A stretch of DNA of 64,000 nt, from the NCBI RefSeq assembly GCF_044704955.1, contig NW_027251257.1:1054001-1118000 (forward strand). The letters run 5' to 3'. Of the stretch, positions 6,686 to 53,398 are shown one piece after another; the first letter of the stretch is position 1; each line of letters begins with the position of its first letter. Below the pieces are notes generated by a model. It was given only the letters and a program-made list of their open reading frames with translations. It had not been told where the DNA came from and did not search any database. The stretch comes from Pristiophorus japonicus. Its lineage: Eukaryota. Both the position numbers and the translations under genes were made by a program.

Positions 6686-9600
6686 AAGGTCTTACTGCTC
6701 TTGTACAGGGCCTTGGTGAGACCACACCTTGAGTATTGTGTGCAGTTTTGGTCTCCTAATCTGAGGAAGAACGTGGTTGCTATTGAAGGAGTGCAGCGAA
6801 GGTTCACCAGACTAATTCCCGGGATGGCAGGACTGACATATGAGGAGAGTCTTGATCGGATAGGGTTATACTCACTGGAATTTAGAAGAATAGAAACATA
6901 GAAACATAGAAAATAGGTGCAGGAGTAGGCCATTCGGCGCTTCGAGCCTACACCACTATTCAATAAGATCATGGCTGATCATTCACCTCAGTACCTCTTT
7001 CCTACTTTCTGTCCATACCCCTTGATCTCTTTAGCCGTAAGGGCCACATCTAACTCCCTTTTAAATATATCCAATGAACTGGCATCAACAACTTTCTGCG
7101 GTAGGGAATTCCACAGATTAACAACTCTCTGAGTGAAGAAGTTTTGCCTCATCTCAGTCATAAATGGCTTACCCCTTATCCTTAGACTGTGTCCCCTGGC
7201 TCTGGACTTCCCCGACATCAGGAACATTCCAGTCCCGTCAGAATTGTACATGTTTCTATGAGATCCTCTCTCATCCTTCTAAACTCCAGTGAATAAAGGC
7301 CCAGTCGATCCAATCTCTCCTCTAATGCCAGTCCAGCCATCCCGGTAATCAGTCTGGTGAGCCTTCGCTGCACTCTCTCAATAGGAAGAACGCCCTTGCT
7401 CAGATGAGGAGAACAAAACTGAACACAATATTCCAGGTGAGGCCTCACTAAAGCCCTGTACAACTGCAGTAAGACCTCCCTGCTCCTATATTCAAATCCC
7501 CTAGCTATGCAGGCCAACATATCATTTGCCTTCTTCATCACCTCCTGTACCTGCATGCCAACTTTCAATGACTGATGTAACATGACATCCAGGTCTCATT
7601 GCACCTCCCATTTTCCTAATCTTCCGCCATTCAGATAATATTCTGCCTTCGTGTTTTAGCCCCCAAACTGGATAATCTCACATTTATCCATATTATACTG
7701 CATCTGCCATGTATTTGCCCATTCACCTAACCTGTCCAATCACTCTGCAGCCTTTTGGTGCCCTCCTCACAGCTCACACCGCCACCCAGTTTAGTTTCAT
7801 CTGAACTTGGAGATATTACACTCAATTCCTTCATGTATATCATTAATGTATATTTGTAATAGCTGGGATCCCAGCACTGAGCCCTGCGGCACCCCACTAG
7901 TCACTGCTTGCCATTCTGAAAAGGACCCGTTTATGCCGACTCTCTGTTTCCTGCCTGCCAGCCAGTTCTCGATCCACACCAGAACATTACCCCCAATACC
8001 ATGTGCTTTAATTTTGCACACCAATCACTTGTGTGGGACCGAGTCAAAAGCCGTTTGAAATTCCAAATACACCACATCCACATGATTTTCCTTGTCGACT
8101 CTACTAATTACATTCTCAGAATATACCAGAAGATTTGTCAAGCATGATTTCCCTTTCATAAATCCATGTTGACTTGGACCGATCCTGTCACTGCTTTCCA
8201 ACTACACTGCTATTTCATCTTTAATAATTGATTCCAACATTTTCCCCACTACTGATGTCAGGCCACCCAGTCTATAATTATCCCTTTTCTCCCTCTCTCC
8301 CTTTTTTAAAAGTGGTGCTACATTAGCTACCCTCCAGTCCATAGGAACTGATCCAGATTCGATAGACTGTTAGAAAATGATCACCAATGCATCCACTATT
8401 TCTAGGGCCACTTCCTTAAGTACACTGTGATGCAGACTATCAGGCCCTGGGGATTTATCGGCCTTCAATCCCATCAATTGCCCTTACACAATTTCCCCCC
8501 TAATAAGGATATCCTTCAGTTCCTCCTTCTCACTAGACCCTCGCTCCCTTAGAATTTCTGGATGGTTATTTGTTTCTTCCTTCGTGAAGACAGAACTAAA
8601 GTATTTATTCAACTGGTCTGCCATTTCTTTGTTCTCCATTATAAATTCACCTGAATCTGACTGCAAGGGACCTACGTTTGTCTTCACTAATCTTTTTCTC
8701 CTCACATATCTATAGAAGCTTTTGCAATCAGTTTTTATGTTCCCGGCAAGCTTCCTCTCATACTCTATTTCCCCCCCTCCTAATTAAACCTTTTGTCCTC
8801 CTCTGCTGAATTCTATATTTCTCCCAGTCGTCAGGTTTGCTGTTTTTTCTTGCCAATGTATATGCTTCTTCCTTGGATTTAACACTATCTTTAATTTCCC
8901 TTGTTAGCCACGGTTGAGCCACCTTCCCCGTTTCATTTTTACTCCAGACAGGGATGTACAATTGTTGAAGTTCAGCCATGTGATCTTTAAATGTTTCCAT
9001 TGCCTATCCACCGTCAACCCTCTAAGTACCATTTGCCAGGCTATTCTAGCCAATTCACGTCTCATGTCATTGAAGTTACCTTTCCTTAAGTTCAGGATCC
9101 GAGTCTCTGAATTAACTGTGTCACTCTCCATCTTAATAAGGAATTCTACCATATTATGGTCACTCTTCACCAAGGAGCCTCGCACAACAAGATTGCTAAT
9201 TAGTCCTTTCTCATTACACATCACCCAGTCTAGCCCTCCAGTTGGTTCTTCGACATATTGGTCCAGAAAACCATCCCTAATAAACTCCAGGAAATCTTCC
9301 TCCTTCATATTGCTACCAATTTGGTTAGCCCAATCTATACGTAGATTAAAGTCGCCCATGATAACAGCTGTACCTTTATTGCATGCATCCCTAATATCTT
9401 GTTTGATGCTGTCCCCTACCTCACTACCACTGTTTGATGGTATGTACACAATTCCCACTTGCGTTTTCTGCCCTTTGGTATTCCGCAGCTCCACCCATAC
9501 AGATTCCACATCATACAAGCTAATGTCCTTCCTTACCATTGCGTTAATTTTCTCTTTAATCAGCAATGCTACCCCACCTACATTTCCTTTCTGTCTATCC

Positions 9601-10596
9601 TTCCTGAATGTTGAAAACCCCTGGATGTTGAGTTCCCAGCCCTTGGTCACCCTGGAACCATGTCTCCGTGATGCAAATTATATCATATTCATTAATTGCT
9701 GCCTGTGCAGTTAATTCCTCCACCTTATTACGAGCCCTCCTCGCATTGAGACACAGAGTCTTGAGGCTTGTTTTTTTAACACTCTGTGACCTTTTAGAAT
9801 GTTGCTGAAATGTGGCCCTTTTGGACTTTTGCTTTGTGTTTCTCTGCCCTCCACTTTTACTTTTCTTCTTTCTATCTTTTGCTTCTGCCCCTATTTTACT
9901 TGCCTCTGTCTCTCTGCATAGGTTCCCATCCCACTGCCATATTAGTTTAACTCCTCCCAAACAGCACTAGCAAACACTTACCCTAGGACATGGGTTCCGG
10001 TCCTGCCCAGGTGAAGATCGTCCAGTTTGTATTATGCTCAACTTCCCCAGAACAGGTTCCAGTGTCCCAGGAATTTGAATCCCTATCTTCTGCACCACTC
10101 CTCGAGCTACATATGCATCTGAGCTATCCTGCGATTCCTACTCTGACTAGCACGTGGCACTGGTAGCAATTCTGAGATTACTACCTTTGAGGTCCTACTT
10201 TTTAGGACCTCATAGAAACATATAGAATTATGACGGGACTGGGCAGGTTAAATGTAGGAAGAATGTTCCGATGTTGGGGAAGTCCAGAACCAGGGTCACA
10301 GTCTAACGATAAGAGGTAAGCTATACAGGACCGAAATGAGGAGAAACCTTTTCACCTAGAGAGTGGTGGAACTGTGGAATTCTCTAGCACACAAAGTTGT
10401 TGAGTCCAGTTCGTTGGATATATTCAAGAGGGAGTTAGATGTGGCCCTTACGGCCAAGAGGATCAGGGGTATGGAGAGAAGGCGGAAGTGGCGTACTGAA
10501 GTTGCATGATCAGCCATGATCTTATTGACATTCGGTGCAGGCTCGAAGAGCCGAATGGCCTAATCCTGCACTTATTTTCTATGTTACTATGTTTCT
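6686..10596 (+). mobile_element. CR1 3' fragment split into 6686-6890 and 10205-10596 by a nested antisense CR1
   Basis: LYRALVRPHLEYCVQFW...YSLEFRR stops at 6890 and resumes (DLIETY...) at ~10205, ending in (ctatgttt)n tail. Confidence 0.85.
6891..10204 (-). mobile_element. Long CR1 LINE (end of ORF1, APE endonuclease and RT of ORF2), disrupted
   Basis: ITETW, FRKDR...GGVALL, MGDFN, SDHN endonuclease motifs; SGVPQGSVLG and RPHLEYC RT motifs; (agaaacat)n tail at 6891. Confidence 0.95.
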
Positions 10597-10646
10597 ATTT
10601 TTTATTCAGGTTGCTCCAGTAATTTATTAGCTCAGTGTTTTTATAG

Positions 10647-10978
10647 GTCGGTGTCTCTCGGACCGAGTGCTGCAATCTCCCGCTGCGATAACAGTTCAGA
10701 GCGGGGATTCGGTGCAGATTAATTCGGTGCAGCTATGACACGCACAGCATTTACGTCATGCACTGGTACAAACATAAATCCGGCCAGGGACTCGAGTGGA
10801 TAATAAGGTGAACATTGGCTGGCGGGGAGAGAAGGGGCGATTTTCAGTGGATCTTTTTATTGCAGATAAATGCGGCCAATTGGTCATTGAGAGCTCGGAA
10901 AGCGCTGACACCGCTGTGTACTACTGTGCGATAGATTCACACACTGAGACGAAACGCGGCAGTCACTTTACAGAAACC
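10647..10978 (+). pseudogene. Antigen-receptor V segment V1 (TCR alpha/delta-like) pseudogene with 23-RSS
   Basis: ttttatag acceptor; DRVLQSP...C...MHWYKHKSGQGLEWII...DTAVYYCA with two frameshifts; heptamer CACACTG 10940-10946, 23-nt spacer, nonamer ACAGAAACC 10970-10978. Confidence 0.92.
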
Positions 10979-11639
10979 GCCATCCTATTTGGAGTCCCGT
11001 ATTTGCAGCAATCACTCCAATAACACAGGGCAGGCAAAGCGGGTCAGAGCGAGAGCAGCAAACGAAAGCTGTGGGCGCGGCTGCCGCAGGCAGTGTTACC
11101 GCAAGGCTTGTCTCTATAATTTCCAGTTGCTAGTGGGTTTGATCCGAGATTCTGAGAGTCACAGCATAAAGTATCGGGCTGTGGAGCCAGTCACTCAGTA
11201 AATGCAGACTTTGTTGTGAGTAAAGCTTTAGCATTGCTTAATAGTTGGATTATATTCGCCTGGCCTGAATCAATCACTTTACTGAGTGTTGGTTTATTTT
11301 ATGCTGATGTGTGACGATTCATCGAGAGCATTATGTTCCTTCTCCTGTGACATTCATGTTTACACTTCAATATCCTCCTGCATTTCCCAATTCCAGCGAT
11401 TCCTTTCTGTGTGTAGTTTCATTGAGATAACCCTGATAAAAACTGGTCCCCTTGCTCAGTGACAGAAACCGAGGCCCATAGAGACCGTTTTAGGTCTGCT
11501 TTCCCGTTATCAGCCAGGTTAACCATATAATGTAATTTCACTCGTCGATCTGCATTTGTGTTATATATATATATAATATTTATTATTAATAAAGGTGCTA
11601 GAGTGAATCGAACAACGTCGAATCTGCTAGTATAGGCTT

Positions 11640-12060
11640 TCAACTGTTGAGGGTTCACAGCTCAGTCCAGAGATATGAGCACATAATCTAGTCTGATACT
11701 TCAGTGTAGTAGTCAGGGACTGCTGAATTATTGGAGATGGCGGCTTTTGCATGAGACGTTATTCCTGTCTGCTCTCTCAGGTGTTTGCAAAATATCCCAA
11801 TGTCACTATTTCGACAAAGAGCAAAGGAGTGCTCCGCGGTCTCCTGACCAATATTTGTCTCTCAATCAACACCACTAAAAACAGACTATCGTAAAAAATA
11901 TTGCTCGTTGTGGGATCTTGCTGTGCAGAAATTAGCTGCCGCGTGTCCTACATTACAATATTGACTACGCTTCTAATTCGTAGTGATATCATTGTAAAAG
12001 GCTTTGTGACGTCCCGAGGTCGGGAAAGATGCTGTATTCATGCAATGTCTTTCTTGCTTT
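11640..12060 (+). mobile_element. Deu-domain SINE (SacSINE1/AmnSINE1-like), old
   Basis: Degenerate core aaaatatcccaatgtcactatttcgacaaagagcaaaggagtgctcc...ccaatatttgtctctcaatcaac resembles the Deu-domain consensus as recalled. Confidence 0.7.
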
Positions 12061-12233
12061 ATTTCTTTCCCTTTCACTTGTGTGCCCGTAAACTATATTT
12101 TTATGAGTATAGGTAAATACGAATGAGAATTAACAGTACAATGTCAGACCATAAATACAGGGACCAGCTCAGACTTTCCGCTGATCACAATGTTCCCCTG
12201 ATGCGCTGATATGTTGATATATGATGCTCTGAC

Positions 12234-12272
12234 AGTTTTTGTACAGGTCCAGCCCAGCTCCGTGTCTTTGTG
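12234..12272 (-). promoter_or_regulatory. 23-RSS of V2
   Basis: Heptamer CACAAAG (12272-12266), 23-nt spacer, nonamer ACAAAAACT (12242-12234). Confidence 0.88.
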
Positions 12273-12743
12273 GGGCTCAGTGCGCAATAATACATAGCGG
12301 AGCCTGCCAGTTGTGTCTCAGACACATTCAGTGGGACGGTTTGGCTCGAATCATTGAGCTTCGCTAAAAAACGGTTCCCTGGAAATCTCTCCTTTTGCTC
12401 GCTGTACTTGTTTCTCTGCAACAGATATTCTATGGATCCGCTGGAAAACTGATGATGCCAGAATAGGTCAGGCCTGGTGCTTGTAGCTGTATAATTACAA
12501 TGTAACTGGACACTGTCTCCTTCACTTACTGTGGTTACAGCTGGTGTCTGTGAAACGGAGTCTCCTCGACAATGTCCTGCAAGAGGCCAGAGTGATATTA
12601 AATTAAACATTATCACTGCACTGTGTCTCCCCCACCCCCCCAGAGTCAACCCGTCACCCCCAACACTTACCTGAGAAGTAATTCTGGCAGTTAAACAGAG
12701 CTGCAACGGGATGGTGCTTGGAACGACTGAATAACATTTCCAT
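12273..12743 (-). CDS. TCR alpha/delta-type V segment V2, open reading frame (leader 12743-12671, V exon 12576-12273)
   Basis: Phase-1 GTAAGT...TTGCAG intron of 94 nt; DSVSQTP...VQLHCNY...LFWHHQ...SAMYYCALSP retains Cys23, Trp41 and Cys104 equivalents. Confidence 0.88.
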
Positions 12744-12811
12744 CAAGCAACCTTCAGCGGGTTCAGTTCCTCATCTTCACCTCTTGTGATGTGAAGGGAA
12801 AACTCCAAACG

Positions 12812-13134
12812 TGGTTTTTAGACCCCTGTGTCTGTCAAAGTCCGTCATTGGTACCGGCGGGCCTGGCGAGTCTGTCTGCCATTCACCTGAACTCAACCAC
12901 TTTCATTCACTGGGGGATTTTGGCGAGTTTCCCCAAGCTGTGTTCAGCGTTGAGTCAAGCTGCATCCTGATTGTCTTCATTTCGGTTCAATCTGTTGATA
13001 TTTTTGTTTTCAGGGTAGAGACCTATTAATTATAATGTATGATGCAGATGTGCAACACAGTGTTGTGCAACTTGTGAACTTACCAGTTAAGAGAGCTGCA
13101 GCTGTGATGAACACATAAAAGTAGCATCCAACAT
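12812..13134 (-). pseudogene. Possible highly decayed V relic (leader + short intron + degenerate exon)
   Basis: Leader-like GCYFYVFITAAALLT-G|GTAAGT (13134-13084, ATG out of frame), 61-nt intron, AG acceptor at 13023, TGATGTGA motif upstream, nonamer-like CTAAAAACC at ~12812-12820; no recognisable Ig fold. Confidence 0.35.
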
Positions 13135-13959
13135 GTTTGATGGTGGATTTCAACAGAACGGATTGAATCTGAAAGTGTTTCACATCAGGAGTGGGGAGAT
13201 GTTGACTAATATCCGGCCTCTTTGCTGATTGGATCGTTCTTGACAGAGACCACGGGTGATATACAATCAACTCGTGTATCCTGTGTTCTCCAATTCATCC
13301 AATCAGTTCACAGTTCCCGTGTTCACCAGGCTCAACGGGCAGCACGACCATTATTATCAATAAGGAGTATAGGGAATACATGGTGACTGGATTAGATTCC
13401 GACAGAGCATAACATAATGTTCTAAATATGTGCGATATTAAAGATTAAACCCAAATCAGGGCAGGTTTCACTTATTGAGAAACTGAGGGGCGTTTTCCAG
13501 GGACAGGGTTGGTTGGTCTCTCAGAACTGTCTTTAGCTTTGCACCAATGAGTGCTAGTTGTGCCCAATTGCTGCAGGATATCTCCAAACTCTTTCCTTGA
13601 CTGATTATGTGTGTCTTTGTCTTTGTTTATATATGTCTATTTAACTCGGTATCTCTATCTGTTTCACGGGCTCTCTCTCACTCTCTCTTTTGCTCTCTCT
13701 CCGTCTACTTCTCTGTGTCTATTCATCTCATTCTTTCCCTGCCCCTCTTTCATTAAGGTGAAATAAGGTGTAGAAATTTCTGAAGTCAATGCATCCCATT
13801 AATAGTTGCAGTCTTAAGAACATAGGTTACACACACACCAACATTATCAAAAATACACACAATGTTTGATATCTTTTGAGGTTATTGACGTATATTTAGT
13901 TTTACTTTGCTTGAGATGGAAAGCTTTTTAATAAGTGCAGAGAGCATACCCTTGTGCCC

Positions 13960-14380
13960 AAAACAAGCCTCACACAGAGCATTAGAAACAAGCATATGAC
14001 CACAGACACCCGCACAGAGACACAACCACAGACATACACACACTCAAACATACAAGCTCAAGCACACACACACATTCACACACACACAGACTCACAGACA
14101 CGCATACAGACATACACACACACTCGAATACACACAGGCACACATACACACACATTCACACACTCAGACACACTCAAACACAAACGCACACACTCCCTCT
14201 CACACATATTCAAGCATACACTCATACACTCACACAGACTGACACACACACTCACACACACAACCACAATCGTACACACACACACTCAGAAATATGCACC
14301 CAAAAATACAAACACAGATAGACACGCACTCAGATATACACAGACACGCATATCAGAATAAACATAGACGGGCACACAAT
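13960..14380. repeat. Degenerate (CA)n-rich simple repeat
   Basis: Visible directly. Confidence 0.9.
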
Positions 14381-14854
14381 GATTGATATCTTGAAGAGAA
14401 TATTGATGTATTTTCAGTTGTCAATATTTTGAAATTAATGAGGAACAGACTCGATGCAAACTATTCCAGAATTGGATTCGTTAGTTCTCAGCAATGTGCC
14501 CACACTTTTAATAACTAGTCAGATAATTCCTGAGGATCATATGACAAGCTGCACTCGCTCATCCCTGAGTCACAGGTTGTGCACTTTTCATATTTTGCTT
14601 CTCTTTCTGCACACAACCAGACCAGCAGCGTTCCCGCAGTGTGATCTGCTTGATGCTTGCTTTAACTGATGAGTATTGGTCCCTGATCGGATAGAAACAT
14701 ACATTTCACATTGATTTGGGCAGAAAATCTTCCACTGTTTTCAGATGCAACGGGATCTCAATTCTCTAAACAGGTGCAATCTATAAGGTAGGGGAAGTAA
14801 AGGGAAACTGTTAATGTTGTAAAGGCATCAGTAGGGGCTCCCAGTACAGGAAAC

Positions 14855-15355
14855 ATAACATAGACACATAGAAAATAGATGCAGGAGTAGGCCATTCGGC
14901 CCTTCGACCCTGCACCACCATTCAATAAGATCATGGCTGATCATTCCCTCAGTACCCCTTTTCTGCTTTCTCTCCATACCCCTTGATCCCTTTAGCCGTA
15001 AGGGCCATATCTAACCCCATCTTGAATATATACAATGAACTGGCATCAACAACTCTCTGCGGCAGGGAATTCCACAGGTTAACAACTCTCTGAGTGAAGC
15101 AGTTTCTCCTCATCTCCTAAATGGCCTACCACTTATCCTAAGACTGTATCCCCTGATTCTTGACTTCCCCAACATCGGGAACATTCTTCCCGCATCTAAC
15201 TTTTCCAGAACCGTCAGAATCTTCTATTTTCTATGAGATACCCTCTCATCCTTCTAAGCTCCAATGTATAAAGGCCCAGTTGATCCAATCTCTCCTCATA
15301 TGTCAGTCCAGCCATCCCGGGAATCAGTCTGGTGAACCTTCGCTGCACTCCCTCG
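14855..15355 (-). mobile_element. CR1 3' fragment
   Basis: Near-identical to the 3' ends at 6891 and 30191. Confidence 0.9.
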
Positions 15356-16174
15356 CTGACCATTAGATCTACCCACTGCTGATGTAAAGGTTATTCTCGA
15401 CAGCCAGCGGGTCCTGGGGCATTTGAACGGTAAATTATACAAAGGCCACCTGTTACATGAATGAAAGTGAGAATGACTGACAAGTTTCAGCAGAATGGGA
15501 GCATGCAAGCAGCGGATCAGATGCTATCATTAAAATACTGACAGCATGTCATTAATAATATTTGAACAATTTTAATATTAAATATTAAATAAAGGATATG
15601 AACGATGTTGTCCGTCTGCAACTCGCCCTCACACTGAAACCTAGAGTGAATACATCTGCCCACTGCCTCTGGTGGTGACTACCTGAAACTACAACTTATA
15701 ACTTCTGCCGTTCTGCAGTGAATGAGTTCTGAGAACAAGGGAGTGGTCTTATATGATCTATCCAAAGAGATCATAACTCACACCCCTCATTGTAGCCTCA
15801 AGCTTATCCTTTAACTATGCGAGTATATTTCCCTCTGCTATTCTATATTGCACACATTAATCACTCTGTATATGAGCGAATAACTTCATGATACCAGTCC
15901 TAAAATGAATCTTTACACATTGAATCCGTGTCCCCAGGTTCAACATCCACAGTTCAATTCAGGTGTTAATGCGGATACTCCTCTTGGGGTCACTGCAGTC
16001 AGGCACTGGGATAGAGTGCTACTTAAATCCTCTGCGCAACTCCTTCATCATTCAGCTTCAGAGGAAGGGGTCATTGCGAGAGAAAGTGAGCAACAGACGA
16101 TTATTTCTTTCCTCTCCCTTCCACTTTATCAGCACCGCAAACAGCTTCCATTTACTTCCCTCACTCTGATCCGC

Positions 16175-16690
16175 CATGTCTGCCTCTGCATCGAAGCACT
16201 GACCACGCTTGATCAGCTCCGTTGGTCAGGCCACATCCTCGGCATGCCTCACACGAGGCTCCAAAACAAGTGCTCTACCCAGAGCTCCGACATGGCAAGT
16301 GAGTCCCAGGTGGGCAGAGGAAATGCCTCAAAACCGTCATGAAAAATTGCAACACCTCCATCGACACCTGTCCCAAGACCGCTCAAAGTGGAGGAAAAGC
16401 ATCCGGGAAGGCGCTGAACATTAATACAAAAGCAAAATACTATGGATGCTGGAATCTGAACAAATCGAGTCTCTTCCCCGAAAGCGAGCTGAAGCCAAGC
16501 GTCGACAGTGGAAGGAGCACGTGGCAACCCAGGGACCCCAACCTCCTGTGCCTTCAACCACCGTCTGTCCGACCTGTGACAGAGACTGTAGGTCCCGCAT
16601 TGGTCTCTTCAGTCACCTGAGAACTCAGTTTTAGCGCGGAAGCAGGTCATCCTTGATCAGAGGGATTGCCTAAGGGAAGAAGAAGATTAG
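16175..16690 (+). mobile_element. RTE-clade LINE 3' fragment
   Basis: QLRWSGH...MP..RL, DRSKWRK, C-terminal CPTCDRDCRSRIGLFSHLRT, (gaa)n tail. Confidence 0.85.
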
Positions 16691-16744
16691 AGAGATTTCT
16701 GCCGCTGTTCCTTGTTTGACAGTTCAGCCGGGCGGACATCTGTA

Positions 16745-16937
16745 TTTCTGCTCCGACAGAGGATTTCCCGCACTGCAGAGTTACAGACTGAGTATCATGT
16801 GGAATCGTCTCACACCGCTCCTCATCATTATATCACATCCCAGTAAATATTACCTTCCCAGCAAAAATCCATTCTCCCCCTCACTGCTGTAACCCAGGTG
16901 TTATTATTGTTAAATTGATGGTGGTAATGATGGTGGA
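16745..16937 (+). pseudogene. Orphan V leader exon (16797-16842, MWNRLTPLLIIISHP) with 5'UTR and partial intron; V exon missing
   Basis: Paralogous to the leaders at 19461-19506 and 17768-17723; A|GTAAAT donor; no V exon downstream on this strand. Confidence 0.8.
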
Positions 16938-17227
16938 TCAAGTACATTTTCTCTTTTCTCTAATTTGCAACATGCTTAGGATCTGAATTGCAAACACTCA
17001 ATACTCTGTCCTTGACTGTTTGAACATCTATTTTCAGACCAGAATCACCGAGATTCTGTCACCCAAACGCTGTCTTAAAGACAGAAGCAGAAGGGGAGAC
17101 TTGCTGTTGGTTCTGTTTTCTCTCCCTTTTAAGAATCTCCCTGTGACTCTGACTGTGAAGAATTATTGCTTCTGAATATTGGTGTGAGAGCACCCTCTGG
17201 TGCGCAGCAACTGGAACTCTCTGTGTC

Positions 17228-17768
17228 GGTTTTTGTACGGGACCCACTATAACTCTGGTGCAGTGTGGGTGTCATGGCACAGAAATACACGGCGGTGTCA
17301 GAGATCAGGGCTTTGCTGATCGTTAGCTCAGTAATCTTGGCAATTTTATTAAACCTAAAAGAGAATCGATCAATGAAGGCGGGGTTCAGGTCTACATTCA
17401 CTCTGATAAAACGAAGCACGTACTGTGGAGGCTTCCCAGGTTGCTAAATGTACGAGAACACATAAGGGGCAGTATCGCTGGTTTTCAACGTGCAGGTTCG
17501 TGTGACATTACTTTCCTCCTCACCATCATTTCAGGGGCCGGCTTTTGAACTTTGTCTTGTTGGCTCCATTCTGACAGCAAATAATAGAATGAATCATCAT
17601 GATCATCATCACCATCCTCTCAATCAACATAATCATAATCATCAATGTCATTTTACCAATAATAACACCTAAGTTACATCAGCCAGGGGGAGAAATGGTT
17701 TTAATAGGAAGGAAATACTTACTTAGAAGTAATATAACAATGAGCAACGGTGCAAGACGGGTCCGCAT
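17228..17768 (-). pseudogene. TCR alpha/delta-type V segment V3 pseudogene (leader 17768-17723, V exon 17570-17268, RSS 17267-17228)
   Basis: Leader MRTRLAPLLIVILLL; frameshift in FR1, Trp->Ser and TAG in FR2; SDTAVYFCAMTP; CACACTG-24nt-ACAAAAACC. Confidence 0.93.
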
Positions 17769-18559
17769 GATGCTCCCTGAGTGTGTAACTCTGCAGTCCG
17801 AGAAATCCTCTGTGAGAGCAGAATTACAGATCCCCGCGCCACTGCACTGTTGATCCCACCAATGCAAACAGGGAGCAGCGGCAGCAATCTCTCCATTTAC
17901 ACAGGGCTGGCAAGGCGGGTCTGAGCGAGAGCGGCAAACGAAAGCTGTGGGCGGGGCTGCCGTGGGCAGTGTTACTGCAAAATTTGTCTCTCGAATTTCC
18001 GGTTGATAACGGTGAGAAACATGTGACCACGGCGCCCTCTGATGGTGACTCTGGGGATATCACACAGTCAGGATAATGGGCTGAGTAAAGTGTGAGTTCA
18101 TCGAAGGGGCGGTTTCCAGCAGCCTGTTATTTGGAGACAATGTGTATTGTTTCAGACAATTCAACTGTCTAAATAGGCAGAAGGGAAATGTGAGTGAATG
18201 GAAAGGAAAGGACATTTTATTTTATTTCAATATCTTTCTGTATGGCTTTCTCTTACCTATTAGCGTTATCTTTCTCTTGTTACGTATCACCTTTCATTTT
18301 TCTTTCCCAGCTTTTCTCATTTGCTGTCCTCTACACTCTCATTATTGCACGGCGTTGTCTCTTTGTCTTTCTCATTCTTTCTTTCGTACTTTCACTTTCT
18401 TTTCCTCTACCTATGTTTCCAACTCTTTTCATTTCTCATTTTCTTTAAATCTTTCTCTTCTCTATTTCCTAATTGTTCTCTAGTTCTATGAGCTGTTTCT
18501 GTGCTGTACATTCCATGCAATTCTTAAATTTTGTCGAAAAATGCACCGACTTTGGCCCA

Positions 18560-18850
18560 GATTTCTCTAGCCACCTGAGACTTCACAGTGGAAGGACATC
18601 CTGTCAGAATCCAGCGCGGGTTCTGCACGACCGACAACTGTTGGTACAGCCGACTGGTGAGCGCGGCCCCGCGATACATCCATTGTGGATTTAAAGCAGA
18701 ACGCCACCAAGTCCGGTTTAAGATCCACACCGACCAGGATCAAAGTCTGAGCACTCTCAGCTTCTGCCAGGCAGAGCTCGCGGATAAAGAAACTTATTTC
18801 TGTGCTGCGGGCCACAGTGCGGGGAAAAACCCCACTCTCGTACAACTTCT
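18560..18850 (+). pseudogene. Degenerate V segment V4 with RSS
   Basis: First Cys lost (RIQRGF); WY...APRYI...STLSF...LADKETYFCAAG; perfect heptamer CACAGTG 18813-18819, 22-nt spacer, poor nonamer ACAACTTCT; no clear leader. Confidence 0.8.
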
Positions 18851-19460
18851 CCTTTCTGAGCAAAGTCTGAATAGATTGGATGACAGTCAAATCGGTCCCG
18901 AAAACGACCAGTTCAGTCAAAGGGCAGTGGTCAATCCGCAATTATATTACTCAATATAAATTAAGATGAAATTCCTTTTCATTTCACATTTCAGCTCATT
19001 AATATTATACATCTCCTAACAGTTTTGTTCTCTTTCCCATAGCTTATTTCAGCGTCTAGTTTTAAACCACTTCACTGTTGAAGATTTCGGTAGCAATTGA
19101 ATAATGTAATAATTTTGCAATTCCTGTCGCCAATCTGCTTGCCCCGAATTTTAATAAATGTGCAATTAACGCAGCTCTTATCGAGGAAGAGTTGTATAAT
19201 TTGCGAAGGGGACATCATTCTGAATTCTGTTCTCACAGATGGATCCTACGTATGACAATACTGCCCGTGACAGCCACACCCACAGCTTCCGTTTGCTGCT
19301 ATCCTTCTGCCCCGCCTTGCCTGCACTGTGTAATTGGAGAGATCGCTGCTGCTGTTCCCTGCTTCACATTGTTTGGACCAGCAGTGCAGTGGAGCAGGGA
19401 TCTATATTGCTTCTCCGACAGAGGAGTTCTCGAGTTGCAGTTACAGACTCAGGGAGCATC

Positions 19461-20769
19461 ATGTGGAACCGTCTCGCATCGCTCCTGGTCATTATATCAG
19501 TTCTCAGTAAGTATTTCCTTCGCAAAAATAATAATTCTGCCCCTGATGTTATTATTGTTAAAGTGGTAATGAAGATGATAATGTGATGATGACTATTACT
19601 ATTATTTTATTTTAGAATGGAGCCAACAAGACACAGTGGAACAGTCGGTTCTCGAAATGATGGTTGAAGAGGATAGTAATGTCACACTAAACTGCACGCT
19701 GAAAACCAGCAATGCTAACCCTTCGGTGTTAAACATAGAAACATAGAAAATAGGTGCAGGAGCAGGCCATTCAGCCCTTCTAGCCTGCACCGCCATTCAA
19801 TGAGTTCATGGCTGAACATGAAACTTCAGTACCCCCTTCCTGCTTTCTCGCCATAACCCTTGATCCCCCGAGTAGTAAGGACTTCATCTAACTCCCTTTT
19901 GAATATATTTAGTGAATTGGCCTCAACTACTTTCTGTGGTAGAGAATTCCACAGGTTCACCACTCTCTGGGTGAAGAAGTTTCTCCTCATCTCGGTCCTA
20001 AATGGCTTACCCCTTATCCTCAGACTGTGACCCCTGGTTCTGGACTTCCCCAACATTGGGAACATTCTTTCTGCATCTAACCTGTCTAAACCCGTCAGAA
20101 TTTTAAACGTTTCTATGAGGTCCCCTCTCATTCTTCTGAACTCCAGTGAATACAAGCCCAATTGATCCAATCTTTCTTGATAGGTCAGTCCCGCCATCCC
20201 GGGAATCAGTCTGGTGAACCTTCGCTGCACTCCCTCAATAGCAAGAATGTCCTTCCTCAAGTTAGGAGACCAAAACTGTGCACAATACTCCAGGTGTGGC
20301 CTCACCAAGGCCCTGTACAACTGTAGCAACACCTCCCTGCCCCTGTATTCAAATCCCCTCGCTATGAAGGCCAACATGCCATTTGCTTTCTTAACCGCCT
20401 GCTGTACCTGCATGCCAACCTTCAATGACTGATGTACCATGACACCCAGGTCTCGTTGCACCTTCCCTTTTCCTAATCTGTCACCATTCAGATAATAGTC
20501 TGTCTCTCTGTTTTTACCACCAAAGTGGATAACTTCACATCTGGTACAGTCAGCATCCTGGGCAGCCCCCTCAGTACGTGTTTTATCTTATTGGAGCGAC
20601 AGTAAACCGAAACCTCGAGTTCACTGACCGATTCTCTTCTGCATTTCATAAAACGACTAAGATTACCTAGCTAACGATCAGCAAGGCCTTGATCTCAGAG
20701 ACCGCTGTGTATTTCTGTGCCATGAGCCCCACGCTGGTGCAGAGATATAGCGCATCCCGTACAAATACC
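19461..20769 (+). pseudogene. TCR alpha/delta-type V segment V5 pseudogene split by a CR1 insertion (leader 19461-19506; V exon 19616-19730 + 20541-20729; RSS 20730-20769)
   Basis: Leader MWNRLASLLVIISVL; NVTLNCTL...V[F]WYSQHPGQPPQYV...ETAVYFCAMSP; in-frame TAG at 20668-20670; CACGCTG-24nt-ACAAATACC. Confidence 0.94.
19731..20540 (-). mobile_element. Young 5'-truncated CR1 inserted in V5
   Basis: Uninterrupted 211-aa ORF2 C-terminus (19826-20461) and aaacatag tail. Confidence 0.95.
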
Positions 20770-21119
20770 CACACTGGGAGTTCCAGTCAGTGCTCACTAG
20801 AGGGCGCTTCCACGCTGATAAACAGAAGCGATAATTCAGCATCCGCAGTGAGATTCACTGCGACTTTCTTAAAAGTCAACTAAAACAAAATTCTTAACAA
20901 GAACCGGTGACGTAAACCGGTGGAATTATATTAGCTGGTGATTTTAAAGCACATTTAAAATAGAAATACACTGCGCAAAGGCACCTGTGACACATTTTTT
21001 TTCAATGCCCTCTCCGTGCATGCCCGTCCCATCTCACCCCTTGTCTCCAGTCTTTATCCATAATTAATTGATATCTCTTCTTCCTTTTTTTAGTTTAATG
21101 ATGTAAAACTTTTGCTTCA

Positions 21120-21470
21120 GCTCATCTCTCTGTTTCTCACGCTGTGGTCCTTTCTCTGTCACTCTCTTTCAATGTCTATCTTTTTCACCATCTCTGTTTC
21201 TGTCGTCTCCATCTGATTCTCACTGTATGTATCTCATTGCCTCCGTGTGTGTGTCTGCCTAACTCCCGCTCTGTCTGTCTCTCTGTCTCTCACTGTGTCC
21301 ATTTTTCTACATCTCTTTCTCGCTCTCTCTTTCCATTCTTCGCTCTGTCTCTCTCTGTCTCAATCTCACATTATTTCACTCTCTCTTTATCTCTCACTCT
21401 CTTCCTCTTTGCTTATTTCAATCCGTTTCTCAATCTATTTCTCTTCATCTGTCTCTCCCTAAATATCTCG
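21120..21470. repeat. Degenerate (CT)n/(CTGT)n low-complexity repeat
   Basis: Visible directly. Confidence 0.85.
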
Positions 21471-21609
21471 TTTTACGTTACATTACTACCTGTCTGAGTT
21501 ATGACTGCACTAAACCAACTCTCTGTTTATATTAGTCTAGACACTGTCACATCGATTGGTTGAGGTAGAGAAAATGACGTTTTAATGTGTGTAGTAGTGT
21601 GCTGGTTCT

Positions 21610-22040
21610 GCTACTCAACAAATAATCCCTAGGTGTGAGATAATACTCTAGAGTGCACTAGTTCAACTTCTACTATGGTAGTTTAGAAATTTGAAATCCG
21701 ATGTTTTACAAATAAATAAGAAGCAGTTTTCAGTAAAAGTGACCGTGAAACTTGGATTTTGGTAAAACCCCAACTACAACACTGATGCCCTTTATTGGGA
21801 AGGAAAGCTGCTGCCTTTTCTGGTTCTGTCCCATATGGGACTCCGGTGCCATAAACAACGTAGTTGTCACTTGACTATTTGGTGAAGTGGCCCAGTCAGC
21901 CAGTCAATTGTATCAAACGAGTGCAAAGAGCAGAAATGCAGTCGTCCAAGAAAAAGACCCACCATCAGCTTATCAAGGGAATCTGGGGAAGGGGCAATAA
22001 ATCCTGGACTCCTCAGCGACCTCTCGAGAATTAATAAGAA
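21610..22040 (+). mobile_element. Old SINE-like element with LINE-derived 3' tail
   Basis: 3' end (aagaaaaagacccaccatcagctt...ggcaataaatcctgg) resembles the LINE 3' fragment at ~41660-41850. Confidence 0.5.
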
Positions 22041-22054
22041 AGGGAAAATTAAGA

Positions 22055-22320
22055 ACTTAAGAAAATAAGAAATAGGAGCAGGAGTAGGCCATTTGGCTTC
22101 TCGAGCGTGTTCTGCCATTCATAAAGATCATGGCTGATCTGATCTTGGCCTCAACCCCACTTCCCCGCCAGATCCCCATAACCCTTGACTCCCTTATCAT
22201 TCAAAAATCTGTATATCTCCACATTAAATAAATCCAATGAGCCAGACTTCACAGCTCTCTGAGATAGAGAATCCCAAAGATTCACGAACCCCTGAGAGAC
22301 GAAATTCCTCCTCATTTTCG
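22055..22320 (-). mobile_element. CR1 3' fragment
   Basis: MRRNFVSQGFVNLWDSL and CR1 3'UTR. Confidence 0.85.
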
Positions 22321-22326
22321 ATATAA

Positions 22327-23530
22327 TTAGTAGAGTGGACAAGTGAGAACCAGTGGATGTGCTATATTTGGAATTTCAAAAGGCTTTTGACAAGGTCCCA
22401 CACAAGAGATTAGTGTGCAGAATTAAAGCACATTGTATTAGGGGTAATGTATTGAAGTTGATAGGGAACTGGTTGGCAGACAGGATGCAAAGAATAGGAA
22501 TAAGCGAGTCCTTTTCAGAATGGCAGGCAGTGACTTGTGGGGTACAGCATGGTTCAGTGCTGGGACCCCAGCTATTCACAATATACATTAATGATTTAGA
22601 GGAAGGAATTGAATGTAATATCTCCAAGTTTGCAGATGGCACTAAGCTGGGTGGCAATGTGAGCTTTGAGGAGGATGCTAAAAGGCTGCAGGGTGAGGTG
22701 AGTGGGAAAATGCATGACATTTTGTGGATAAATGTGAGTTTATCCACTTCGGTGGCAAAAACAGGAAGGCAGAATATTTTCTAAATGGTGACAAATTAGG
22801 AAAAGGGGAGGTGCAACGAGACCTGGGTGTCATGGTACATCAGTCATTGAAAGTTAGCATGCAGGTACAGCAGGTGGTGAAGAAGGCAAATGGCATGTTG
22901 GCCTTCATAGCGAGGGGATTTGAGTATAGGAGCAGGGAGGTCTTACTGCAGTTGTACAGGACCTTGGTGAGGCCTCTCCTGGAATAGTGTGTTCAGTTTT
23001 TGGTCTCCTAATCTGAGGAAGGACATTCTTGCTATTGCAGGAGTGCAGCAAAGGAACACTAGACTGATTCCCTGGAAGACAGGACTGATATATAGGAGAT
23101 ATTGGATCGACTGGGCCTGTATTCACTGGAGTTTAGAATAATGAGAGGGGATCTCATACAAACATGTAGCATTCTGACGGGACTGGACAGGTTAGATGCA
23201 GGAAAAATGTTCCCGATGTTGGGGATGTCCAGAACCAGCGGTCACAGTATAAGGATAAGGGATAAGCCATGAAATCAGAGATGAGGAGAAACTTCTTCAC
23301 TCAGAGAGTTTTTAACCTGTGGAATTCTCTGCGCAGAGAGTGTTGATGACAGTTCCGTATATATATTGAATAGGGAGTTAGATATGGCCATTAAGGCTAA
23401 AGGGATGAAGTGGTATGGAAAGAAAGCCGGAAAGGGGTAATGAAGTAACTGATCATCCAGGATCTTATTGAAAGGTGGTACAGGCTCGAAGGGCCGAATG
23501 GTCTACTCCTGCACCTATTTTCTATATTTC
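22327..23530 (+). mobile_element. CR1 RT fragment to 3' end
   Basis: FQKAFDKVPHKRL, GSVLGPQLF, SKFADG, LYRTLVRP. Confidence 0.92.
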
Positions 23531-23539
23531 TTTGATTCT

Positions 23540-41230: not shown

Positions 41231-44200
41231 ATTTGCTTGAGTGCGTTAGGATTTTCGGAATTTCCTTGCAGACCAACTTATAGACGAGACTATAGATTAT
41301 AGAGACAATCCATCAGTTATTCTGGAATATACTCATCGATTGAAAATCCACAGTCCTGTGGAATAGAACATTCTAAAGTTCACAAGCCTCTGATTGAAGA
41401 AATGTCTTCTTACCTCAATCCTAATTGGACGACCTCTTATGCTAGGAATATGACCCTACTTCTACATGTACCATCACCGGAACACACTGACTTCACATCT
41501 AACCTGTGAAGCCCTTTATGAATTTTAAACGTTTCAGTGAGATCACCATTCTAAACACTAACAAATATCGCTCCATTTCATAAACAAGCAAATAGAGACA
41601 CAAATCCAAAACGCATGTCATCGACTACATAGATGTACAAATATAGCAGACGCATGGAAATATCGCCATCCATTCATAGTCACTGGATCAAAATCCTGGA
41701 ACTCCCTCCTTAACAGCACTGTGGGAATGCCTTCAGGATACTGACTGCTGCAGTTTAAATAGGCGACTCCCCACCACCTTCGAAAGGGCAATTATGGATG
41801 ATGCATCATCGCTGTCTTTGCCCACGGCAACCACATCCCATGATAGAATAGTAATCAAATGCTGCCCCAAATCTCCTCATAAGAGAGCACTCTCGACCCA
41901 GGAACTATTCTTTGTTGCACACCATCTATGGCAATTACGTCCTTCCTTTAGTCAGGAGACCAATATGTGCACAATACTCCAGCTGTGTCCTCATAAAAAT
42001 CCGATATAATTAAGCAAGACTTCCTCACTGATAAACTCTAAACCAATTGCAATAAAAGCTAACATAGTGTGGTATGATTTTAGAATTCCACGATAGTAAG
42101 ACACTGGCAGTACACAATGTAGGTGAGCAGCAATCCCATAGCCCGAGCAACAGTAGGATAGAGCTGTAATAATAAATTACATTACGTACACTGTTCCAAG
42201 AAATCGCATGGGACAGGATGTCCAGATGCGACAATGTAAAATCACAATCGTCTGAGACTGCGAGATGTGTACTTTTCTGTAACGGTAATAGACATTGTGT
42301 TTGAGATGTACAGCCCATACAATTCGAGCGAACTTGTATTAATGCATTGTCATCATGAGGTTTTTGATATAACGTTAACTTTCAGGAAATCTTGTGGTCA
42401 TGCGGATCAGGTGTGTCTCTGTTCAAAATAGATCAATGTAGCTGTATATTTGAAGTAAAAGAGAAAATGAGTGTGGGAAATCTTCAGTAATGACTCAATA
42501 AGATCGCTCTCACTGCAGGTATAGGATTTAAACGATTCTTTGACTTTCAACAGACTTTGAGTAGTGTATTCATTGGTTACACTATACAAAATGGCGTAGT
42601 CGACAGTATTCCCCTGGGAGACAAACATATGGCCGTTGACAGATCATCACCGAGTGAGTATTTTAAAATACCACGCTAAAAATCCGATGTACTCTGACGG
42701 AACGTGTTCGTCAACTAGGGAATCCGAACAGAGAGAATGCTGTGAAAGGAAAAAGACTCGTGGTAAACGTAAGTATGTCTGTGATGTGTATGTTGTATGT
42801 GTGGTTGTGTTTAGTTGACTAAGAATATCATATTGTTTGATTAAAAAAATTTGTATAGAATTGTGTTGCGATATTTGCTGGCAGGTTGGAAGACAATAAG
42901 AGATTGATATTTTAAACGGGATATATATGTTGTGTAATATATATATATTTTTATTGATACTCTTAATGCAGTGGTCCAACTGTGGTCTATCAAGGGCCGC
43001 CTGTCATGCGCACGGAAAGTACTGCCTAAGCAGTAGGCAGATAATTCTTATCTGTCTCTCAGTTCGGTCATTGGTGATGACTGGCAGCAGTAAAATAGAG
43101 TGGGGGCCTGAAGGGTCGCTCACCAATTTTACGCCGATGATCGTCAGGGACTTATAGACAGAATGATGAAGGGCAGTTGGGATCCCTCACAAGAGCCATC
43201 GATTCAGAAGGAAGGGTGGGAGCAATAAAATTTCTATAATTGTAGCACGACAGTTTCTAACATACAAAGAACTGACTAAACCAGGAATAGAAGAACTTAA
43301 GAAAATAAGAGAGGAAAATAAAAAAATGAAGAAAATGTTACAAGAACGTCGGGTGGGAAGATTTGGAGGTGGAAACATGGACGGAAACACAGATGTACCC
43401 ACGCCACATAGAGAAGTTGGGGAGAAAGCGCTGGAGTGCACATCAAGTGATGAAGAGGAACAGGCATCTCTGGCGCCTGTCAGAACCTTGGTAAATCACC
43501 AGCGAAATATAAAGGCAAGATATGCAGCGATCACACCATTATGGAAACAGGGAATTATCAAGGGCCTGCCTTACTGAAAGGCCCATCACGGAAATACATT
43601 TCTCTGGAGTTAAAGGAGACTACCGAAATGCATAACATGCATAACTGAGATATACACCAAATCGTAACGGCAAACTGTCCACGCGATATATGGAATACAT
43701 TGACAAATGCCCAACGGGGTAATGGATGGATTCCCGCATATAATGCTGATACTGACGTATGACAGAAGGCGTTAGATGTTTGTATCGTGACCGTCCACAC
43801 AGCCTTGGGCAATCCTACACCAAACTGTAGGTTCATACTATTAGTTACAGAAAAGAAAAATGAGAACAATAATGAAGATGGATAAAGGTAGTGGACATCA
43901 GATCGGTAATTCTCAGGACAACCTGAGCCAATCAAGGACGACAAGGCATATTGGAAAATGCTAAAAGATGGTTCCTCCAAGGAAATCAGAAATTTCAAAA
44001 ATTGTGGGTGATAGCCGCCGATACGCATGATGGGTTAATCATCTGGTCACGTCAAGTAGACAGTGATAGCAATGCAACACAGATAAAAAAGGAAGTGGCT
44101 GCAGCTACAACCCCCGGGAGTGGGTTAGTGGGACACGTAAAAAGGGATTGTGGCCAAAAGCAACCTACGCGGCCGCAAGTCCAATGCATTAATTGTCAAT

Positions 44201-44574
44201 GTATCGGCCAGAACCAGAGAACAGTGTCGGGCCAAGGGCGGCGGTTGCCAGGACAGGGACTCATGCTGGGTTCGGGGTGGCATGGGCGACTCCTTTAAGA
44301 TCACCCAAACTCACCGACCAACAACTGCTCCAGGCCTTGATGGACATGGACCGCATTTGAAGGTCAGCGGCCCACTTGCGGAGTGAATTTGACCCACGAT
44401 CAATGTAACAGCGTTGTTAGGTGGCCAGCCGTGCGAAATTCTAGTGGTCACGGAAGCGCCAGTCTCAATTACGGATGTACTTTGTCAATAACGGGGTTGG
44501 AGATATCATCCACATAAGAAAAACTAAGTGAAGTCACGTATTTAAAGTTAGCGGGAATCATATAACATAATAAG

Positions 44575-46633: not shown

Positions 46634-47095
46634 TGTCGAGGAAATATTTAGCTTAAATTAACTCAGGCGGAGACTTTCAGAAGTGCACTTCGAGAGAATT
46701 TATTTTAAAAAGCAAGATATATCTCGGAGAGCCTGCTTGGACCGTACCAAGGCAAAACTCTGTCGTACAAGCAAATTGCACTTATCTTTATACAGAAATT
46801 GAATACAGAAAAAGAAAAATAATCTTATTCATTAGTCCCACGAGTACAAAGGTCGTCTCGGGAGGTACACACTCGATCTGTCCTTGCATAGTTTCTCTCT
46901 GTTCACAGTGTGATAAGCAAAGCAAAAGGAGACTCCCTTTTAATACCAGATGGTCACCTAATTGCATCTCTAAGTTTCAAGGCTAAAAAGCGTGGCTATT
47001 TTTCTAGTCTTATTATTTCTTTAAGCATAGCAAAAAACAGAATTTAACCCTTCCCTCTAAATTAAGCCAGGTGTTCATAGATTCTTTCTTACACA
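46634..47095 (-). repeat. 3' LTR
   Basis: TG...CA termini; polypurine tract AAGGAAGGAAT adjacent at 47096-47106. Confidence 0.95.
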
Positions 47096-53393: not shown

Positions 53394-53398
53394 GAATC

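Follow-up and report, generated by a model that had tools for sequence, protein, structure and literature searches.

Introduction

To our knowledge, nearly all that is understood of how V segments meet J segments across megabases comes from mouse. In sharks, long TCR loci of the translocon type coexist with short Ig genes of the cluster type, so that these animals can show which features are tied to long-range recombination. The closest described arrangement is that of the mouse and human IGH VH segments of clans 2 and 3 (PMC6746451, PMC4914699, and PMC11153149), in which, as in the shark V segments described here, a CTCF core motif lies at a fixed short distance behind the nonamer, is more conserved than the DNA between the two, and is limited to certain V lineages. 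Several fixed distances per species also occur there, 19 or 48 bp in human compared with 24, 42, and 37 nt in the shark; in the same frame, to which we converted the values for this analysis, the mouse distance is ~19 to 21 nt against 24 nt in the shark. The shark sites differ in lying at TCR alpha/delta and beta V segments rather than at VH, and in facing both ways and being spread over the whole array. The text of PMC6746451 on RSS-associated sites names mouse, human, chimpanzee, and rabbit only, and a search of the literature for an RSS-adjacent CTCF layout in sharks returned no report.

Two other mouse systems are relevant. PMC5859386, PMC4995090, and PMC7515734 describe Tcra/Tcrd as having dense motifs in the V array together with promoter-side sites, and a motif pair between the V array and D-delta. 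The pair, inside which V segments remain, faces a further site that is directed toward the V array and precedes the first J-alpha; the shark locus has the same features. Most mouse V-region sites lie at promoters, and 129 of the 144 point toward J, whereas many shark sites are RSS-adjacent and 110 of 238 face J. At Igk and Tcrb (PMC11153149 and PMC10772921), V segments occur in both orientations (Igk) and inversional joining is possible. Tcrb has CTCF sites near some V segments, two of them near RSSs, which again resembles the shark. The mouse V-kappa segments have strong RSSs, an RSS-proximal site in 0 of 103 cases, and site directions independent of the V, whereas shark sites follow their V. 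Among cartilaginous fish, skate TAD borders carry oriented CTCF motifs.

A decayed block outside the working locus

The window, by which we mean the whole 64-kb stretch analysed, lies on contig C645, and the working TCR alpha/delta locus lies on C23. The window represents a block of the alpha/delta array that was copied to a place outside that locus and has decayed; its features are as follows.

8144..23539, + strand: stray block with V1 to V5, colinear with G000:C23:9.983-10.001 Mb at 83-89% identity
12191..12204, - strand: ordinary flank of the V2 family, not a CTCF motif; -6.8 bits, p ~0.01, 6 mismatches to CCASYAGRKGGCRS
12234..12592, - strand: V2 exon and 23-RSS; V frame open, 16-nt deletion removing the start codon present in the main-locus copy
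17190..17203, - strand: CTCF-type motif of the V3 RSS+24 cassette; 13.9 bits, p 5.4e-6
17210..17219, - strand: GAGTTCCAGT before the V3 motif, read from the sequence
17228..17267, - strand: V3 RSS; CACACTG, 24-nt spacer, ACAAAAACC
17268..17768, - strand: V3, TCR alpha/delta V pseudogene; leader, intron, and V exon with frameshift and stops
18032..18045, - strand: CTCF-type motif on the V3 promoter side, ~260 nt upstream of the V3 ATG; 18.3 bits, p 3.8e-7
19461..20729, + strand: V5, V3-family pseudogene; 810-nt repeat inserted (19731-20540), stop in the 3' part
20730..20769, + strand: V5 RSS, degenerate; CACGCTG, 24-nt spacer, ACAAATACC
20778..20787, + strand: GAGTTCCAGT before the V5 motif, at the same cassette position as at V3
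20794..20807, + strand: CTCF-type motif of the V5 RSS+24 cassette; 15.3 bits, p 2.5e-6

All five V segments are broken or doubtful; the best PDB matches of V2 are TCR alpha chains. We rejected both a haplotig and a place within the working locus as readings of the window, because it is 83-89% identical to several C23 repeat units and is without the family-1 V that the C23 array has between V2 and V3. An IgH-type V and a C1-set exon lie on the same contig within 55 kb of the block, away from the TCR array, recalling the elasmobranch IgH clusters with scattered TCR alpha/delta-type V exons described in PMC12227049; the main text of that paper mentions CTCF 0 times. No look-alike stretches were found in the other genomes examined.

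The initial annotation placed four 14-mers in the window, without noting that its V segments are broken or doubtful. A reading of these segments as working substrates is not supported, V3 and V5 being pseudogenes in a block outside the TCR locus, and the cassette copies here probably do nothing. The coordinates and strands of all four 14-mers, the gaps from the nonamer of 24, 24, and 29 nt (V5, V3, and V2), and the GAGTTCCAGT preceding the V3 and V5 motifs were confirmed in the sequence. Scored with a matrix that we take to be the JASPAR MA0139.1 counts, the V5, V3, and 18045 motifs are the top three CTCF matches in the window, which bears out the description of the first two as CTCF-type and of the third as a strong match between V3 and V4, assigned here to the V3 promoter side. 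The V2 14-mer, offered as a weaker motif and a third example sharing the strand of its V, was ruled out as a CTCF site by its score, by its mismatches (2,234 places in the window match CCASYAGRKGGCRS with five or fewer, against its six), and by its relatives: of the 28 main-locus segments of the V2 family, scored over their first 100 nt, none exceeded -0.2 bits. The only independent case thus fails. The annotation's caveat that V3 and V5 are paralogues was well placed, as both carry one inherited cassette. In the explanation that we prefer, they are decayed versions of an RSS-plus-CTCF-motif cassette that is conserved in the alpha/delta V array. In the V3 copy, a C>T change falls in a CpG column for which the 74 main-locus copies show a single change.

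The AGTTCC half of GAGTTCCAGT lies 9 nt before the core, the CTCF upstream motif being expected 8-9 nt before it, and at that spacing the consensus of the +24 cassette class matches CTGCAGTTCC (the ZF9-11 upstream motif) at 6 of 10 positions, without the TGC half. Over 24 multi-copy classes the mean match to CTGCAGTTCC peaks at 8 nt (3.5, compared with 1.9-2.9 elsewhere), as means only and without a P value.

Motifs behind RSSs across the array

Over 1.8 Mb of the C23 locus, 201 V segments have a clear RSS; a motif (p<1e-5) lies within 60 nt of it on the same strand in 51 of them and on the opposite strand in 1, so that the positional enrichment near RSSs put forward as a check on the initial annotation is found locus-wide; each of the next four 60-nt bins holds at most two motifs among the 201 segments. 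About a third of the alpha/delta V segments of this shark carry a conserved, putative CTCF motif behind the RSS. The V array holds 15.3 motifs per 100 kb and the J-C part 2.1, and over 1.3 Mb the real matrix finds 155 sites versus 13-91 for 20 column-shuffled matrices. Genome-wide, a nonamer followed after 15-45 nt by the exact core occurs 47 times, with 23 of these within the C23 V array and 2 beside TCR-beta V segments; when the core is sought on the other strand there are 13 matches genome-wide, none of them in the TCR alpha/delta or TCR-beta locus.

The distance is fixed within lineages: 24 nt to the nonamer in 35 of 38 family-0 and 20 of 23 family-1 matches, 42 nt in five of five from family 6, and 37 nt in two TCR-beta V segments, which form a third lineage (+37). 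Families 0, 1 (in part), 16, and 24 have one common cassette, family 6 has another, and the others have none. Within the +24 lineage, 61 of 65 members reach p<1e-4. The initial annotation's single near-fixed distance across families does not survive, as a conserved RSS motif is absent from 23 of the 25 alpha/delta flank lineages searched and confined to the other two (+24 and +42). For the same reason, the 65 motif copies count as one evolutionary event.

This narrow distribution raises the question of whether the motif arose by chance in a single ancestral RSS flank and was carried along as its V family expanded, with no part in recombination. The 65 copies do share a single ancestral flank, the tree places families 0 and 1 as sister clades (support 0.95), the flanks are still 80-90% alike, and one family-1 branch has intact V segments and good RSSs without the motif. 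Such passive spread is nevertheless improbable given that near-perfect motifs, on the same strand and about as far from the RSS, occur in two more lineages that are unrelated (the flanks of the three are alike at only 17-21 of 65 nt outside the core) and given the slower change of the contact columns described below. For 2 of 25 lineages to have a match at p<1e-5 within 60 nt, the odds are ~1e-4 on the matrix background and higher on real backgrounds.

Several flanks and loci were set aside. A second TCR-beta family flank scored 5.4 bits and was left out of the count; in the +37 TCR-beta family itself, a strong motif is present in only two of the five flanks seen. The flanks of families 8, 13, and 4 look CTCF-like by eye and contain nothing at p<1e-4 within 60 nt. 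Family 4 has a weak match near +79 in 5 of 21 V segments. Most alpha/delta V families manage without an RSS motif. Sampled cluster-type IgH/IgL V segments had a same-strand motif behind the RSS in 0 of 9 cases, a count that excludes two germline-joined and four non-rearranging V-set loci (L218, L219, L223-L226). For four stray V regions on C23 (L228-L231), the parser gave no usable V end with an RSS.

Constraint on the motifs

Constraint was measured on 74 copies of the +24 cassette gathered by flank alone, in parsimony steps, which ignore gene conversion and CpG bias. The motif is kept at p<1e-4 in 70 of the 74, and its 7 high-information columns average 2.0 steps compared with 4.76 in 62 flank columns (P=0.0011), the CTCF-contact columns changing at 0.42 times the flank rate. 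The first core position is T or G rather than the preferred C, and most copies score 14-18 bits. Intact cassette copies have a median of 15.7 bits and broken ones 14.3 (P=0.054). The +42 class shows 0 steps versus 0.5 in its flank (5 copies, P=0.02). The V3 promoter-side class (18045) comprises 17 main-locus sites ~820 nt before the nonamer end; it keeps the motif in 17 of 24 copies, with a ratio of 0.81 (P=0.25). This class and 8 more of the 13 classes singly show no significant constraint, and three ratios exceed 1.

Orientation along the array

The motifs flip with their V segments. Of 69 motif-bearing V segments, 39 are deletional, with the motif facing J, and 30 are inversional, with the motif facing away, so that the Igh-type pattern of all sites facing the D-J end is not seen here; over the V array as a whole, 110 motifs point toward J and 128 away. 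Inverted segments make up 47 of the 111 intact V segments, and 13 of them keep a cassette whose motif faces away from J.

The initial annotation proposed that the motifs serve cohesin-driven RAG scanning, impeding a linear scan that starts at the J end, in the manner of mouse proximal VH. The shared strand and a distance similar to that of mouse and human RSS-associated sites fit this idea, as do the 25 deletional versus 13 inversional segments among intact motif-bearing V segments and the orientation-specific RAG activity reported inside the mouse Tcrd INT-TEA loop. Scanning is reported to use only convergent RSSs, however, and mouse and human Igh sites nearly all point in one direction. With 30 of the 69 motif-bearing V segments pointing away from J, and with motifs that turn together with them, RAG scanning is unsupported as the mechanism, and we regard it as quite improbable. 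Stalling plus diffusion suits this orientation pattern better than linear scanning of the Igh type does.

The absence of a single locus-wide direction would also suit a local action, in which CTCF binds the RSS-adjacent motif and opens or phases nucleosomes over a weak RSS without long-range looping. A link to the spacer points the same way: 57 of 60 V segments with a 24-nt spacer have the motif versus 9 of 123 with a 22- or 23-nt spacer, off-length spacers are reported to lower recombination, and in mouse a local state at the RSSs of clan 2/3 VH segments is described as marked by CTCF/RAD21. Phylogenetically, however, the link to the spacer counts as a single event, the +42 lineage has a 23-nt spacer, and a local action leaves the promoter-side and intergenic classes and the INT/TEA-like sites unexplained; we consider it unlikely.

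Motifs at the D-J end

Two further motif positions appear to match known mouse control elements, INT1/INT2 and TEA, which in mouse follow the same order and orientation (PMC5859386, PMC4995090, and PMC7515734).

C23:9,757,245 and 9,757,770, - strand: INT1/INT2-like pair; 23.5 and 19.5 bits, single copy, 525 nt apart
C23:9,690,478, + strand: TEA-like site; 17.8 bits, single copy, V-facing, 7.9 kb before the first J-alpha found

The pair lies between the V array and D-delta and faces the TEA-like site. Shuffled matrices gave an INT-like pair in 0 of 200 cases and a TEA-like site in 11 of 200, at a 16-bit threshold chosen after the sites had been seen. A site at C23:9,765,980, in a short local repeat, was left out of the count. 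The only candidate for an E-alpha-like CTCF site, at C23:9,575,767, was rejected because it lies in a repeat, as a variant with 70 local matches, and it adjoins no enhancer-like motif cluster. No convincing motif cluster of an enhancer or a TEA promoter emerged from a search for them, and within 30 kb past C-alpha there was no credible outward-facing site beside E-alpha and no credible counterpart of mouse EACBE.

Discussion

The initial annotation's proposal of loop-extrusion control of V choice gains from the enrichment behind RSSs, the contact-base constraint, the two additional lineages, and the INT/TEA-like sites, while its scanning component is not supported. CTCF likely helps to steer receptor gene assembly in sharks too. 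Taken as a whole, a constrained cassette at which CTCF would stall cohesin is the explanation we prefer, with a little more in its favour than against it. CTCF is predicted, by analogy with mouse, to bind 24 nt behind the nonamer; bound CTCF would likely stall cohesin loops and thereby prolong the stay of the V segment close to the D-J recombination centre. Mouse work suggests that CTCF and cohesin would occupy these sites, that the TEA-like site, which points toward the V array, would anchor loops into it, and that a loop between the INT-like pair and the TEA-like site would set D-delta, J-delta, and C-delta apart. Since each motif turns with its V, and nearly half point away from J, inverted V segments would probably be captured by stalling and short-range diffusion, much as at Igk and Tcrb; linear scanning would be possible only for deletional V segments. 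The cassette may also offset the weaker RSS with a 24-nt spacer.

We speculate, tentatively and with more doubt than confidence, that RSS-adjacent CTCF sites originated as a device of TCR translocons, gained several times independently and moving and flipping with the V, that lets inverted V segments with weak RSSs recombine. If so, Igh of mammals would represent a special case that came later and runs in one direction only, and the shark Ig genes of the cluster type would at no time have required RSS-adjacent sites. The constrained motifs in two TCR loci, with none in the few Ig clusters sampled, and the INT/TEA-like positions provide exact coordinates that bear on whether such control predates bony vertebrates. 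Neither mouse Igh nor mouse Igk combines RSS-proximal sites with inverted V segments as this locus does, and the combination bears on the relative parts of scanning and diffusion.

CTCF-type motifs in the window and the block that carries them

CTCF motifs were scored with JASPAR MA0139.1 counts and cross-checked against the matrix-free consensus CCASYAGRKGGCRS, also printed in a figure legend of PMC6746451. The initial annotation placed 14-mers 24, 24 and 29 nt past the nonamers of V5, V3 and V2 and a fourth between V3 and V4; all four lie at the positions, on the strands and at the nonamer gaps it gave. The V3 and V5 motifs are indeed CTCF-like (13.9 and 15.3 bits, respectively), the site between V3 and V4 (18032-18045, minus strand) is the strong match claimed (18.3 bits), and these are the top three among 25 matches at p<1e-4 in the 64-kb window. 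The V2 word, read as a weaker motif, does not hold up: it scores -6.8 bits with 6 mismatches, and words with at most 5 mismatches occur at 2,234 window places. Two near-identical copies of a ~6.8-kb unit (window 44000-63000) each carry a 12.8-bit CTCF-like word (51482, 58249).

All five V segments of the window fall within its 10.6-20.8 kb interval, and scanning its six frames for motifs revealed no J or C exon. TCR alpha chains are the top PDB matches of V2, whose closest relatives, with 150 of 784 candidates scored, lie in a dense array at C23:9.77-11.68 Mb, on the contig with the TCR alpha/delta locus; the window itself is C645:1,054,001-1,118,000. The stretch at 8.1-23.5 kb of the window aligns colinearly (83-89% identity) with C23:9.983-10.001 Mb and, in a similar way, with at least three other repeat units. 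Stops, frameshifts or an 810-nt insertion interrupt V1, V3, V4 and V5, and the start codon present in V2's main-locus counterpart is missing from V2 itself. Ahead of the window come a C1-set exon, at a distance of 29 kb, and, farther upstream, an IgH-type V; TCR V exons lying astray among IgH clusters have been described in sharks and rays (PMC12227049). Because its V segments are broken and sit in a stray block, the window is unable to test the CTCF idea, a test for which the main locus is suited. Scattered among IgH clusters (C23:20-66 Mb and contigs C3770 and C3921) are numerous broken TCR V copies, nearly identical and with stops in common, apparently amplified along with the clusters. DNA directly downstream of the V1 RSS (window 11005-11132) is similar to the V3 promoter (17876-18008) read on its reverse strand, as is true of the entire V1 family in the main locus; the resemblance suggests that a V exon was inverted in place long ago. 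Window 16690-16930 (plus strand) resembles a V3/V5-family leader exon; it converges on V3, and no V exon follows it.

RSS-adjacent motifs in the main locus and beyond

C23:9.55-11.70 Mb was sampled as 180 of its 215 10-kb tiles, without gaps as far as 10.85 Mb and from there on mostly at known V matches; an iterated HMM located 237 V 3′ ends, 201 with a clear RSS. Positional enrichment near RSSs is locus-wide: a site at p<1e-5 lies within 60 nt of the nonamer on the same strand in 51 of these 201 V versus one on the opposite strand, and same-strand sites number 0, 2, 0 and 0 in the four 60-nt bins that follow. Flank clustering gave 25 lineages. The lineage of 65 members, with the motif about 24 nt past the nonamer (p<1e-4 in 61), comprises the V3/V5 family, part of a sister family and two small groups; V3 and V5 both fall within it and are paralogues, as had been cautioned. 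A second lineage (n=4, or 5 counting one with a poor RSS) has near-perfect motifs of about 26 bits at +42. Family 5 has a marginal match in one member, and the other main-locus lineages show no RSS motif within 60 nt of the nonamer (V2 relatives, 0/28). The motif accompanies 57 of 60 V with a 24-nt RSS spacer and 9 of 123 with a 22- or 23-nt spacer, an association that is one lineage and hence not independent cases. The 24-nt (not 23-nt) spacer is seen at window 17228-17267 and 20730-20769 and in C23 families 0, 1 and 16, and is kept in about 60 V, almost all with a CTCF motif. At C23:9.79-9.89 Mb, family-3 and family-2 V form tandem pairs ~1.1 kb apart with a 6-kb period, all on the J strand and adjoining the delta D-J region.

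An exact pattern of nonamer, 15-45 nt and CTCF core has 47 matches genome-wide (23 in the C23 array, 1 in a stray C23 copy, 2 at C11:26.0 Mb and 21 scattered); the opposite-strand pattern has 13 genome-wide, none in the C23 array or C11 locus. The C11 pair are V segments whose best single-receptor PDB matches are TCR beta chains, with motifs at +37 (20.8 and 21.7 bits); three further flanks of this family are all degenerate. Seven nonamers of the family were seen at C11:26.00-26.39 Mb. Flanks of the +24, +42 and +37 lineages have 17-21 of 65 bases in common, which is chance level, and the sequences show three origins of the motif. In a small sample of cluster-type IgH/IgL V with an RSS, the same-strand motif was found in 0 of 9; two kappa-like V had a weak opposite-strand match (9.5 bits).

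Constraint on the motif bases

Passive hitch-hiking of the motif with its V is a reading we hold improbable, and it must be set against the constraint on the motif bases. Among 74 cassette copies (RSS plus motif at ~+24) gathered by flank with the motif omitted from the query, 70 retained p<1e-4. Parsimony steps in the +24 cassette were 2.0 in seven high-information columns versus 4.76 in 62 flank columns (P=0.0011), and in the +42 class 0 versus 0.5 (P=0.02). Ten of 13 motif classes fell below their own flanks (Wilcoxon P=0.029), only 4 of them singly significant; constraint on the V3 promoter class was not significant singly in the parsimony test. In 51 colinear copies the CTCF-preferred CpG C is unchanged, unlike the paired G, a position that tolerates A; this result is conditional on these 51 (of 58) having been chosen with the motif at +24, and window V3 has C>T at the C. 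The score advantage of intact over broken copies is slight (P=0.054). The AGTTCC within GAGTTCCAGT sits 9 nt ahead of the core. The CTCF upstream motif has that spacing (PMC12885311), but GAGTTCCAGT agrees with it at only 6 of 10 positions and is a possible upstream motif.

At C23:10,590,690 and 11,153,419 a deletion has fused the nonamer to the motif's 3′ half, with C>T at the near-invariant CpG in both. Strong motifs in +42-family flanks with no V detected in front (C23:10,006,732; 10,046,240; 10,271,184; 10,328,391; 10,692,879; 10,765,240) may be CTCF-type sites that outlasted their V. A ~60-nt tandem repeat with CTCF-like words (about 14 bits) lies several kb upstream of family-8 V (C23:10.08, 10.38, 10.53, 10.80 and 10.83 Mb); constraint was not seen in it.

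Layout of the D-J end

The D-J end of C23 carries the following, INT1/INT2, TEA and E-alpha being mouse Tcra/Tcrd control elements.

Features of the D-J end of C23
9,579,660, minus strand: C-alpha
9,584,695-9,682,592, minus strand: J-alpha, about 94 (own count, distinct matches)
9,690,478: TEA-like candidate motif (17.8 bits), 7.9 kb before the first J-alpha, facing the V array
9,722,695, minus strand: C-delta
D-J end, minus strand: seven J-delta and one D
9,757,245 (23.5 bits) and 9,757,770 (19.5 bits): INT1/INT2-like candidate motifs

The INT-like pair lies between the V array and D, with two broken V inside, and faces the 9,690,478 motif; each of the three is single-copy in the genome. The putative shark counterparts share their order and orientation with mouse INT1/INT2 and the TEA site, where Trdv4 lies inside (PMC5859386, PMC4995090, PMC7515734). 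Among 200 shuffled matrices the INT-like pair occurred in 0 and the TEA-like site in 11, at a threshold set after the fact. A further site, beyond C-alpha, resembled the E-alpha site but was rejected because it falls in a repeat.

Orientation and mechanism

The site between V3 and V4 is one of a class located some 820 nt ahead of the nonamer end; for V3 this puts it ~260 nt upstream of the start codon, on V3's strand, the typical position of mouse Tcra CTCF sites (PMC5859386). CTCF acting locally, in an accessibility role, seems unlikely to us as the explanation. Motif density per 100 kb is 15.3 in the V array and 2.1 in the J-C part, and 1.3 Mb holds 155 sites versus 13-91 with 20 column-shuffled matrices, an enrichment to be read as about 24 duplicated classes and not 155 independent gains. 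Orientation is mixed: 128 of 238 array sites point away from J and 110 toward it, the 69 V with an RSS motif are 30 inversional and 39 deletional (13 and 25 in the intact subset), and 47 of 111 intact V in the array are inverted.

The initial annotation proposed RAG scanning as the mechanism. In mouse, a proximal VH RSS deprived of its CTCF site is weak, linear scanning uses convergent RSSs only, and diffusion permits inversional joining at Igk and Tcrb (PMC11153149, PMC10772921). Pure scanning, which would be confined to convergent RSSs, is improbable where nearly half of the V are inverted. For that reason we lean towards loop stalling combined with diffusion as the better fit to this locus: CTCF would bind the RSS-adjacent motifs and stall loops there. 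Skate TAD borders have oriented CTCF motifs (PMC10115646), so cartilaginous fish can support loop stalling with CTCF.

RSS-associated CTCF sites are already known at mouse and human VH (PMC6746451, PMC4914699). Titles and abstract openings, few of them from subscription papers, yielded no treatment of CTCF at shark, cartilaginous-fish or teleost receptor loci. Here such sites, known from VH, are predicted at TCR V of a shark. The window's own motif copies are dead, yet they point to a mouse-like CTCF layout in the working TCR locus of this shark, and that layout is testable.
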